A stretch of DNA of 52,751 nucleotides, taken from positions 1-52,751 of the forward strand of contig JAZDNN010000040.1 in NCBI GenBank assembly GCA_043799675.1, in the 5' to 3' direction. The DNA comes from Candidatus Aenigmatarchaeota archaeon (GTDB taxonomy: Archaea; Aenigmatarchaeota; Aenigmatarchaeia; Aenigmatarchaeales; JACQIB01). The notes beneath the pieces were generated by a model. The model was not told the origin of the DNA and ran no database searches. It saw nothing but the letters and a program-made list of their open reading frames with translations. Positions within the stretch are counted from its first letter, which is position 1. Each line of letters opens with the position of its first letter. A program made the position numbers and the translations under genes. Shown here in pieces: positions 17,065 through 52,674 of this stretch.

Positions 17065-17214
17065 TGGTCGCCAGCTTCTTGGGGTTCCCGCCTTTTCGGC
17101 AGTACAGCCCAAATCGATGACGCGATTCACTACCGTGATTCCGCCTCTTTTTGGTCTCAAAAAGATGTTTCGGAACGGGAACGGGTCTTACCACGTCTCT
17201 TTGGCCGGCAACCA
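17065..17214 (-). rRNA. rrf: 5S rRNA with a 31-nt BHB-bounded insertion (17138-17168)
   Basis: Helix I TGGTTGCCGGC/GCTGGCGACCA; ACCCGTTCCCGTTCCGAA|CACGG loop C signature; GTACT...GGGAAC loop E region; 150 nt with the insert, 119 nt without. Confidence 0.9.
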
Positions 17215-17236: not shown

Positions 17237-17244
17237 TATTTAAA
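17237..17244 (-). promoter_or_regulatory. BRE/TATA promoter of the 5S rRNA gene
   Basis: AAAAAC-TTTAAATA on the minus strand about 23 nt upstream of helix I. Confidence 0.65.
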
Positions 17245-19585: not shown

Positions 19586-19709
19586 TGGTCCCGCCTGGGA
19601 GATTTGAACTCCCGGCCCCCTGATATCTGCTTTCCGAGCAGCGACTAAACACCCACGCTCAGCGCGCTGGGCTACAGTCAGGTGCTCCACCAGACTGAGC
19701 TAAGGCGGG
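19586..19709 (-). tRNA. tRNA-Tyr(GUA) with a 47-nt canonical 37/38 intron (19625-19671); CCA encoded
   Basis: CCCGCCT/AGGCGGG acceptor (C1-G72), CCTGA-CT GTA G/A-TCAGG, GGGAG-TTCAAAT-CTCCC; BHB helix CTGT/GCAG. Confidence 0.95.
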
Positions 19710-51264: not shown

Positions 51265-52200
51265 ATGGACCGCAATGATTTGCTGGCAAGAAAGGTCGAG
51301 GACATGAGGCTCTCGGACATGAAAGCCAGCGAGCTCGTGAGGCAGATGGGGGCCGCCGGAGGCTTCGGTGCCAAGAACGTTTCCACAGCTGTCGACATCA
51401 TGAAGTCAATGCTGGCCGACAAGAACTGCTTCAAGTTCCTTTCGTTTCCTGCCTGTCTGGTCGCTACCGGCCTTCGCGGAGCAATAGCCCAGGCAATAAG
51501 TAAGGGCTGGTTCGACGCCATAATCACTACTTGTGGTACTCTGGACCACGACCTGGCAAGGGCCTGGGGCGGCGATTATTTTCATGGAAGCTTTGAGTTG
51601 GACGACGAGAAGCTGCACCAGATAGAGGTCAACCGCCTCGGGAATGTTCTTGTCCCCAACGAGAGCTACGGAATCCCTCTTGAAAAGCGCATGAATCCGA
51701 TTCTTGAGGAGCTTGCCAGAGAGAAGCAGGACTGGTCCGGTCACGAGCTGGTCCAGAGGTTCGGCAAGCGCATTGACGATGAGAAATCCATAATTCACCA
51801 GTGCGCAAAGCACAATGTCCCCGTGTTCATTCCCGGCATGACCGACGGCGCCTTCGGAACAAACCTTGTTTGGTTCAGCCAGGACCACAAGTTCAAGCTT
51901 GACCTGCTGGCCGATGAAAGGGCATTATCGGACATCGCCTTCGACAGGAAAATCACCGGGGCGTTGATGATAGGCGGCGGCATATCGAAGCATCACGTAA
52001 TTTGGTGGTCGCAGTTCAAAGGCGGGCTTGATTATGCGGTGTACATCACCACCGCCACTCAGTACGATGGAAGCCTGTCAGGTGCCAGGTTGCAGGAGGC
52101 CGTCAGCTGGGGCAAGATAAAGGAGAACGCAAAGTACGTTACGGTGGACGGCGACGCGACAATAATCCTGCCGCTTGTGTTAGCGGCTCTCGACGTCTGA
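51265..52200 (+). CDS. dys: Deoxyhypusine synthase
   Basis: ATGLRG, TTCGTLDHD, NRLGNV, IGGGISKHH, DGSLSGARLQEAVSWGKI, GDATI. Confidence 0.96.
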   Translation: MDRNDLLARKVEDMRLSDMKASELVRQMGAAGGFGAKNVSTAVDIMKSMLADKNCFKFLSFPACLVATGLRGAIAQAISKGWFDAIITTCGTLDHDLARAWGGDYFHGSFELDDEKLHQIEVNRLGNVLVPNESYGIPLEKRMNPILEELAREKQDWSGHELVQRFGKRIDDEKSIIHQCAKHNVPVFIPGMTDGAFGTNLVWFSQDHKFKLDLLADERALSDIAFDRKITGALMIGGGISKHHVIWWSQFKGGLDYAVYITTATQYDGSLSGARLQEAVSWGKIKENAKYVTVDGDATIILPLVLAALDV

Positions 52201-52674
52201 TTAGCCTTTCTTCGGTCTGTTTTTCAATGAACTTTTGTATCCTGCCTCGGCCCGTTTTATGATTCCGATTTCCATCTTTCCGACCCTTTGCTGCAGTGCA
52301 TTTACCCTTTCCTGCGGAAGGTTGCGCTCCCTGGCATTTTCCAACGCATTGCTCGTCTTCACGACGGCTGAATTGGGGCGTATCATTTCCTGCCAGTGGC
52401 TGTCGAGGTAGCTCATCGCACCCTTGTATTCTTTGGCTGCTTCGCTGCCGGGACTCAGTTCGCTCATCAGCGACAAGGCGGCTCTCGTACTGACATATAT
52501 CATATCACGGGTTTCTCCGCCCTTGAAGCGTCCCTTGTAAAGTGCGTCGCGCATTTCGTCGCCGGCCCTTTCCGCCGCCGCTTTCAGGGAGGAATATTTC
52601 TTCCTTTCCACGGCCGTGTAGACGGCCAGCACGAACAACATCCCGGCGCCGAATCCGAGCGCTATCTCAAGCAT
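52201..52674 (-). CDS. Hypothetical membrane-anchored protein
   Basis: N-terminal TM helix; convergent on dys with abutting stops. Confidence 0.6.
   Translation of the reverse strand: MLEIALGFGAGMLFVLAVYTAVERKKYSSLKAAAERAGDEMRDALYKGRFKGGETRDMIYVSTRAALSLMSELSPGSEAAKEYKGAMSYLDSHWQEMIRPNSAVVKTSNALENARERNLPQERVNALQQRVGKMEIGIIKRAEAGYKSSLKNRPKKG

Follow-up and report, generated by a model that had tools for sequence, protein, structure and literature searches.

Candidate bulge-helix-bulge mini-introns in the 5S rRNA genes of Aenigmatarchaeota-like archaea

Introduction

Can a 5S ribosomal RNA (rRNA) gene carry an intron that is removed by the archaeal splicing machinery for transfer RNA (tRNA)? 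The question is raised by a 5S rRNA gene on the minus strand of contig JAZDNN010000040.1 (assembly GCA_043799675.1, Candidatus Aenigmatarchaeota archaeon), of which a stretch of 52,751 nucleotides (nt), called the window below, was analysed as a whole. The gene contains 31 additional nucleotides, 17138-17168, in loop C, which a first-pass annotation had proposed to be spliced out at a motif of the bulge-helix-bulge (BHB) type. From comparative sequence analysis we conclude, with a probability of roughly 0.8, that in an Aenigmatarchaeota-like DPANN archaeon, 17138-17168 is a spliced archaeal BHB mini-intron of 5S rRNA, situated in loop C of the gene. The BHB pathway itself is known; what is new is the host RNA, 5S. 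Our full-text search of the searchable literature found no description of an intron in a 5S rRNA gene, in agreement with the earlier impression that none had been reported.

In the following, G000 denotes the genome under study, other G-codes denote other genomes, and L-codes denote individual loci. The 5S positions are counted on the minus strand, with window position 17212 as position 1.

Results

The interrupted gene and its predicted product

An Rfam scan of the window yields two RNA genes, both on the minus strand: the 5S rRNA gene at 17066-17212 and a tRNA gene at 19589-19709. The 5S gene, 147 nt long including the insert, matches RF00001 over model positions 1-120 with 44.7 bits (gathering score, 38). 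In the RF00001 alignment, loop C holds 33 nt against 2 model positions, which confirms the annotated 31-nt insert and delimits it to 17138-17168. The insert splits the conserved CCGAAC stretch of 5S rRNA.

In silico excision of positions 45-75 joins CCGAA to CACGG and restores a 7-nt loop C with the conserved bulged AC. This BHB-defined cut is the sole consensus-restoring excision in G000, and the central helix is fully paired (4/4) there. The excised product measures 116 nt by the Rfam borders, identical in length to the 5S rRNAs of G001, G002, G004 and G006, four intron-less relatives of the same family. The 5S genes of intron-less family members score 62.8-74.1 bits. All four alignments of the spliced G000 sequence with these relatives are free of gaps within 15 nt of the junction. 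The first-pass annotation had given the product as 119 nt, a length obtained only with the wider borders 17065-17214. Its statement that a cut after the second bulge base removes exactly 17138-17168 and restores loop C holds in the register analysis, and the same stretch is missing from contigs of relatives described below.

We searched the genome for a second copy of the insert by blastn-short, which returned the self-match and chance matches of at most 15 nt. The possibility of a repeated mobile hairpin family in G000 was rejected on this result, as the insert occurs once in the genome.

The BHB motif of the insert

The strict arrangement hBHBh' comprises an outer helix (h), a central helix (H) between two bulges, and an intron hairpin (h'). 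In G000, h and H have 4 base pairs (bp) each, the two 3-nt bulges lie on opposite strands, and h' is paired in 9 of 10 positions (Table 1). The description of a canonical BHB given earlier goes a little far, as the hairpin contains one mismatch and the BHB is not the minimum-energy fold. When the intron was shuffled 20000 times, 1.2% of the shuffles had all of H paired at this register. The BHB motif of G000 is more than chance.

Loop C inserts in relatives and the register test

We surveyed the 5S genes in an order set of 42 species genomes, 36 of which have a 5S match, and in a class set of 151 sampled genomes, 131 with a match. Loop C inserts were found in 7 of the 36 genomes of the order (G000, G003, G005, G012, G016, G021 and G017) and in 12 of the 131 of the class sample; inserts near the tip of helix IV occur in 2 of the 131. 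Together, the 15 loop C inserts come from 14 genomes of the class, labelled Aenigmatarchaeota (DPANN); they measure 20-68 nt and fall at three sites. The first site, after CCC(A/G)U, is occupied in G003, G016, G021, G017, G102, G116, G101, G106 and G121; the second, after CCCAUUC, in G012; and the third, after CCGAA, in G000, G005, G017, G162 and G100.

For the register test, we took the four-base exon segment that stops 2 nt short of the 5' junction and checked its pairing with the four-base intron segment that stops 2 nt short of the 3' junction; this was done for every excision that restores a loose loop C consensus, 28 in the 13 single-insert genes. Exactly one register per gene gives the best H, with 4/4 pairs in 11 genes and 3/4 in G005 and G100, and none of the other 15 consensus-compatible registers reaches 4/4. 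Counting all 15 inserts of the class, 13 have H of 4/4 at the consensus-restoring register, and the remaining two have 3/4. When the registers were slid, 4/4 was obtained in 12 of 240 cases with the 3' side moved by 1-8 nt and in 10 of 240 with the 5' side moved, and shuffling gave 4/4 in 0.2-6% of 20000 shuffles per intron. The intron tail tracks the insertion site: GGGG or GGGA stands opposite UCCC, GUGG opposite CCAU, and CGGA or CGGG opposite UCCG.

In the 5S gene of G017, loop C is interrupted by an insert of 46 nt and another of 25 nt, at a distance of six bases. One register combination gives H of 4/4 for both; h' then has 5 and 7 bp. Formation of the second insert's outer helix requires that the first insert be out, which suggests ordered splicing of the two putative introns.

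Near the tip of helix IV, at 5S positions ~94-120, loci L046 (G070) and L047 (G114) have a 26-27-nt insert with a candidate BHB. Between the two genomes, its central helix shows a compensatory change (GUCA/UGGU versus GUCU/AGGU). Excision of this insert would leave 121 nt, and the position may represent a fourth 5S intron site. G059 and G044 have a 39-nt insert in the same region of helix IV, in which a strict search (of G059) found no BHB.

Inserts in wider collections

In both the scan of a genome collection and the scan of metagenomes, the exon sequence alone was fixed in the query. The genome collection supplied three more archaeal inserts, with H of 4/4 (L058), 4/4 (L063) and 3/4 (L064). 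The metagenome scan, made with the third-site exon context, gave 54 loci, whose inserts, 19-41 nt long, comprise 40 distinct sequences. Each of the 40 has H of 4/4, and CGGA or CGGG stands at the exact predicted offset, followed by two unpaired bases, in every one.

Pooling the class inserts, the genome records and the metagenome inserts (15 + 3 + 40) yields 58 inserts, 57 of them distinct since L058 equals L109. H is 4/4 in 55 of the 58 at the consensus-restoring register, compared with a rate near 5% when registers are slid. All 58 inserts form the first pair of h', by four pair types; the maximum over 2000 shuffles is 44. The first three cells of h' are paired in 167 of 174 cases, compared with 31-67 of 174 after a one-base shift of one strand.

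L058, from a genome record labelled Nitrososphaerota, and L109, from a metagenome contig, have the same third-site insert of 20 nt without any difference. The bin label may be doubtful; if it is not, such introns exist beyond DPANN.

A different reading of these inserts is that they are expansion segments, so that the 31 bases would stay in the mature 5S rRNA as an extra loop C hairpin, as in Halococcus and some clostridial 5S rRNAs. The insert is indeed a self-contained hairpin, and bacterial 5S genes with loop C inserts exist too. L057 (Sporotomaculum) has 38 nt, with H of 1/4 and no h' at its sole consensus-restoring register, and L061 (Acidobacteria) has 21 nt, with H of at best 3/4 and h' of 0. 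In three Clostridia-type genomes (L060, L065 and L067), the extra loop C sequence, 26-30 nt long, partially duplicates the segment of helix III and loop C. We found no BHB in any of these five bacterial extras. Retention gives no reason why six 3'-terminal bases, four of them exon-paired at a fixed offset, recur in 55 of 58 inserts, or why this tail changes with the insertion site and is lacking in the bacterial inserts. It would also leave the conserved CCGAAC stretch interrupted in the ribosome. According to the portion of PMC7812874 that is available, positions 42-43 are blocked by uL5 in bacterial ribosomes (bacterial numbering, not mapped onto this 5S rRNA). Moreover, the inserts range from 19 to 68 nt, have unrelated interiors, and come and go between close relatives. 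We therefore regard retention as unlikely.

Presence, absence and copy number

The contigs of four DNA sequencing runs were compared with the window at a likeness of at least 80%. In six contigs from three runs, 17137 is joined directly to 17169, and the position of the missing segment is unambiguous; one further contig joins 17138 to 17170. A contig from the fourth run retains the insert and has 18 additional bases within its hairpin, so that this variant measures 49 nt. These contigs come from relatives, because their flanks differ from those of the window. Within genus g2, likewise, the insert is present in G005 and absent from G001.

A run search for the window sequence returned eight DNA runs, from sediment or freshwater, with small shares, and no RNA run. 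No run with the exact sequence of the window was found for read-level confirmation, which is the point in favour of an assembly artefact or chimera at the insert. We give this explanation almost no credence, as independent assemblies have inserts at the same sites and one run's contig carries the 49-nt variant of this very insert.

The 45 contigs of the G000 assembly total 748,753 bases; completeness is 83% and contamination 0.08%. We looked in it for an uninterrupted 5S gene, the existence of which had been named earlier as a ground for doubt; there is none in the assembly, and the interrupted gene is the sole match. The 16S and 23S rRNA genes, sought for further rRNA introns, were both absent from the assembly. 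The interrupted gene might be a silent or decaying copy, with a working 5S gene in the unassembled part of the genome, given that rRNA loci are missing from the assembly. A single 5S match per genome is, however, the rule in the class, one-contig genomes included; two matches occur in 1 of the 131 genomes of the class sample (G077) and in two genomes of the order set (G039 and G041). G102, with 5 contigs and about 92% completeness, has only an interrupted 5S gene. In G000, no conserved 5S feature is missing from the exons, their score exceeds the Rfam threshold despite the insert, and a TATA-like box is found at the expected distance. The 40 distinct metagenome variants retain both exons and BHB, which argues for selection. 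A silent copy is accordingly a slim prospect.

Table 1. Coordinates of the 5S rRNA gene, the predicted intron and the elements of its BHB motif.
Feature	Window coordinates	Strand	Basis or remark
5S rRNA gene including the insert	17066..17212	-	RF00001, 147 nt
Exon 1: 5S positions 1-44, helix I and II strands, helix III 5' strand, loop C to CCGAA	17169..17212	-	RF00001 alignment, register analysis
Predicted 31-nt BHB intron, positions 45-75	17138..17168	-	Register analysis; skipped by relatives' DNA contigs
Exon 2: positions 76-147	17066..17137	-	RF00001 alignment; 116-nt spliced length
Outer helix h, 5' strand CCGU, positions 35-38, 4 bp with ACGG	17175..17178	-	Sequence, register analysis
Central helix H, 5' strand UCCG (exon), positions 39-42	17171..17174	-	4/4 with CGGA; pairs also in the minimum-energy fold
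5' bulge AAA, positions 43-45, predicted cut 17169/17168	17168..17170	-	3/3 unpaired in the minimum-energy fold
Intron hairpin h', positions 46-55 with 60-69, loop 56-59	17144..17167	-	9/10 paired, A.G mismatch at the second position
Central helix H, 3' strand CGGA (intron), positions 70-73	17140..17143	-	Complement of exon UCCG
3' bulge AUC, positions 74-76, predicted cut 17138/17137	17137..17139	-	2/3 paired in the minimum-energy fold
Outer helix h, 3' strand ACGG, positions 77-80; after splicing, predicted native helix III 3' strand	17133..17136	-	Alignment, register analysis
TATA-like box TTTAAATA, ~27 nt upstream of the 5S start, A-rich stretch before the box	17237..17244	-	Read from sequence

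Splicing machinery

Two adjacent genes with the catalytic domain of tRNA-intron endonuclease (PF01974; 84.5 and 56.6 bits) are located on contig C10 of G000, at 51445-52508. The product of the downstream gene is most like the catalytic subunit of Nanoarchaeum equitans (3IEY chain A, E 7e-30); Tyr and His of the catalytic triad are retained, and its basic insert KPLKRGPK... aligns to the N. equitans insert. The closest solved match of the upstream gene is the EndA of Methanopyrus kandleri, and it is without the catalytic His. The splicing endonuclease of G000 is predicted to be a two-subunit enzyme and may have separate catalytic and structural subunits. The gene pair is conserved across the order: EndA-like matches are present in 20 of 20 relatives of the order, with two or more in 16 of them. 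According to the available text of PMC5829648, heteromeric and loop-bearing EndAs cut relaxed motifs, and loop L3 of EndA is common among DPANN archaea with disrupted tRNA genes.

The ligase RtcB is encoded as well (524.5 bits). The RtcB match is split in two on contig C16 at 57796-59134 (L044 and L045), covering model positions 1-27 and 25-426 with a distance of about 22 nt between the parts.

Only 16 tRNA matches were detected in G000, of which 12 are at least 92 nt long (92-161 nt). Most tRNA genes of this genome look intron-bearing, and many are probably so disrupted that standard models miss them. The long matches indicate that the splicing pathway is in heavy use. One such gene, tRNA-Tyr(GUA) at 19589-19709 (-), is only 2.4 kb away from the 5S gene and has a 47-nt intron at the canonical 37/38 position. 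In its BHB, H is CUGU/GCAG and the bulges, with the cuts marked, are AG/C and AU/A; it obeys the same cutting rule as the 5S insert.

It is conceivable that the 5S insert is cut but the exons are not rejoined, so that 5S rRNA would function as base-paired fragments of 44 and 72 nt after excision by EndA. Bacterial intervening sequences leave fragmented rRNAs in this way. The BHB evidence speaks to cleavage alone, and helices I-III could hold both halves together. No fragmented archaeal 5S rRNA is known to us, although no search aimed at it was made. The genome encodes RtcB, however, and its tRNA exons need joining in any case. RtcB ligates EndA products in archaea, as stated in the accessible part of PMC4496867. 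We consider the fragmented 5S rRNA very unlikely.

Proposed pathway

The steps that we envisage for the preferred reading, a spliced BHB intron, are as follows. The gene would be transcribed from its own TATA-type promoter, for which TTTAAATA at 17237-17244 is the putative element at the distance expected in archaea, into a precursor of ~147 nt. Exon UCCG and intron CGGA would then form the 4-bp central helix, flanked by the AAA and AUC bulges, the intron hairpin and the outer helix CCGU/ACGG; this outer helix uses the second copy of the tandem CCCGUU repeat, completing the hBHBh' motif. The two-subunit EndA would cut after the second base of each bulge, between 17169 and 17168 and between 17138 and 17137, and RtcB would join the exons. 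Finally, ACGG would re-pair with the upstream CCGU as native helix III, giving the 116-nt 5S rRNA with its 7-nt loop C and bulged AC that was obtained in silico.

The intron is too short for protein coding. Since some close relatives have it and others lack it, we take it to be, most likely, a neutral or selfish passenger rather than a functional part of the ribosome.

Discussion

Weighing of the intron interpretation

The proposal of a spliced 5S intron made in the first-pass annotation is supported in silico by the 116-nt product, the site-matched helices, the relatives that lack 17138-17168, and the presence of EndA and RtcB. Several findings nevertheless weigh against it. Excision and ligation are themselves deduced from sequence. 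In G000, the minimum-energy fold of the precursor (-57.0 kcal/mol, z = -3.84) does not form the BHB: H is kept and is 2 bp longer, and ACGG pairs with the upstream copy of the tandem CCCGUU repeat as in helix III. The BHB-constrained fold, at -53.8 kcal/mol, lies 3.2 kcal/mol above the minimum-energy fold and accounts for about 0.7% of the ensemble in the model. Across the class, an intact BHB core is seen in the minimum-energy fold of just 2 of the 15 inserts. The first-site inserts have no outer helix (h = 0) and are relaxed HBh' motifs that require an enzyme of broad specificity, and H reaches only 3/4 in G005, G100 and L064. The alpha-like EndA has Ala at the position of the catalytic Lys (K334 of the fused M. 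kandleri enzyme). In addition, the 83%-complete assembly without 16S and 23S genes formally leaves room for a second, uninterrupted 5S copy.

The pooled counts are subject to a reservation, as many of the 58 inserts are mutually related and the counts overstate the independent support. The independent part of the evidence is the three sites and the many unrelated hairpins. Within a family of 39-nt inserts (alignment A1), all 266 of 266 cells are paired with a single compensatory change, a level reached by 145-184 of 500 shuffles. The covariation test of this family is uninformative because its members are too closely related. Thus, of the DPANN survey suggested earlier for same-site inserts with covarying BHBs, the inserts and their site-matched tails were found, while covariation within the 39-nt family is not significant.

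The minimum-energy fold misses the canonical BHB of the tRNA-Tyr in the window as well (0/4 H pairs). Minimum-energy folding therefore discriminates poorly, and we rejected it as a test of BHB introns. As to the endonuclease, Ala at the Lys position together with the motif AH(N/T)IRA is found in all 20 alpha-like tblastn rows, which represent 20 loci of the order including that of G000 (L042, L123 and L124-L142); Tyr, His and a basic inserted loop are retained.

Taken more broadly, we think it likely that 5S BHB introns form a widespread class in Aenigmatarchaeota and related uncultured archaea, with at least three sites in loop C and possibly a fourth in helix IV. In that case EndA would have 5S rRNA as a substrate besides tRNA, 16S and 23S rRNA and a few mRNAs, each ribosome of these archaea would depend on EndA and RtcB, and the RtcB gene of G000 might itself be split by an intron.

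Relation to known systems

The closest counterparts seem to be the archaeal 16S BHB mini-introns of less than 50 nt in Thermoproteales and Desulfurococcales, as presented in the available part of Jay and Inskeep 2015 (PMC4496867). Like the 5S insert, these are non-coding, reside in an rRNA gene, and consist of a hairpin with a BHB core that includes exon bases. They too occupy conserved loops and vary between close relatives, and their removal is ascribed there to the tRNA-splicing endonuclease and RtcB. In contrast, the host here is 5S rRNA and the lineage is DPANN, not Crenarchaeota; there is also no homing-endonuclease intron nearby that could explain spread by co-conversion. The term "5S rRNA" has no occurrence in the accessible text of that paper.

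With canonical and relaxed pre-tRNA introns, such as that of the tRNA-Tyr in the window, the insert shares the 4-bp helix, the two 3-nt bulges and the cut after the second bulge base, and the same enzymes would act. The first-site loop C inserts resemble the relaxed HBh' pre-tRNA type as outlined in the accessible part of PMC5829648. Unlike pre-tRNA, the 5S substrate has no tRNA body, and its outer helix is an alternative register of helix III that would re-pair after ligation.

Retained 5S expansion segments, as in Halococcus morrhuae and Thermoanaerobacterales (Stepanov and Fox 2021, PMC7812874), likewise add sequence inside a 5S gene, and the region of loop B, helix III and loop C is one of their favoured locations. 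So far as the available text goes, it is demonstrated or presumed that these segments remain part of the mature RNA, and a splicing motif is not reported for them, whereas the inserts described here have a conserved BHB. The term "bulge-helix-bulge" is absent from the same portion of that paper, in which Stepanov and Fox also state that excision is not excludable for most oversized 5S genes.

EndA also acts on rRNA precursors at the BHBs of the 16S and 23S processing stems (accessible parts of PMC10515664 and PMC7714728). Those BHBs flank whole rRNAs and give circular intermediates, whereas the present one lies inside the 5S rRNA and a spliced product is predicted. The same sources attribute the 5S ends to other nucleases, namely tRNase Z and cleavage at an A/U-rich motif. 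Circular 5S species were interpreted as degradation products in what is available of PMC12558985, and 5S genes are merely counted in the available portions of PMC8561730 and of a 2026 Nanobdellota preprint.

Implications

If these inserts are spliced, 5S rRNA is a new class of substrate for the archaeal tRNA-splicing machinery, and mini-introns can colonise even the smallest rRNA, at a loop that contacts protein. The three sites with their exon-matched tails form a small natural collection for studying the requirements of the endonuclease outside tRNA, and the presence or absence of the inserts among close relatives offers a handle on the gain and loss of non-coding mini-introns. An intron-split RtcB gene, if true, would couple ribosome production to the splicing machinery.

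There is also a practical consequence for annotation. Covariance-model searches lose about 20 bits on an interrupted 5S gene (44.7 here versus 62.8-74.1 for the intron-less genes), and the interrupted genes of G005 (37.2 bits) and G017 (36.0 bits) fall below the Rfam threshold. Therefore, "5S missing" in quality reports on DPANN genomes may sometimes mean "5S interrupted".

The neighbouring tRNA-Tyr gene

ARAGORN at its default settings misses the tRNA-Tyr gene and reports no tRNA for the window. When introns are allowed, the gene is located at 19586-19709, three bases longer at the 3' end than the Rfam match. These three bases read CCA, which looks to be encoded in the gene.

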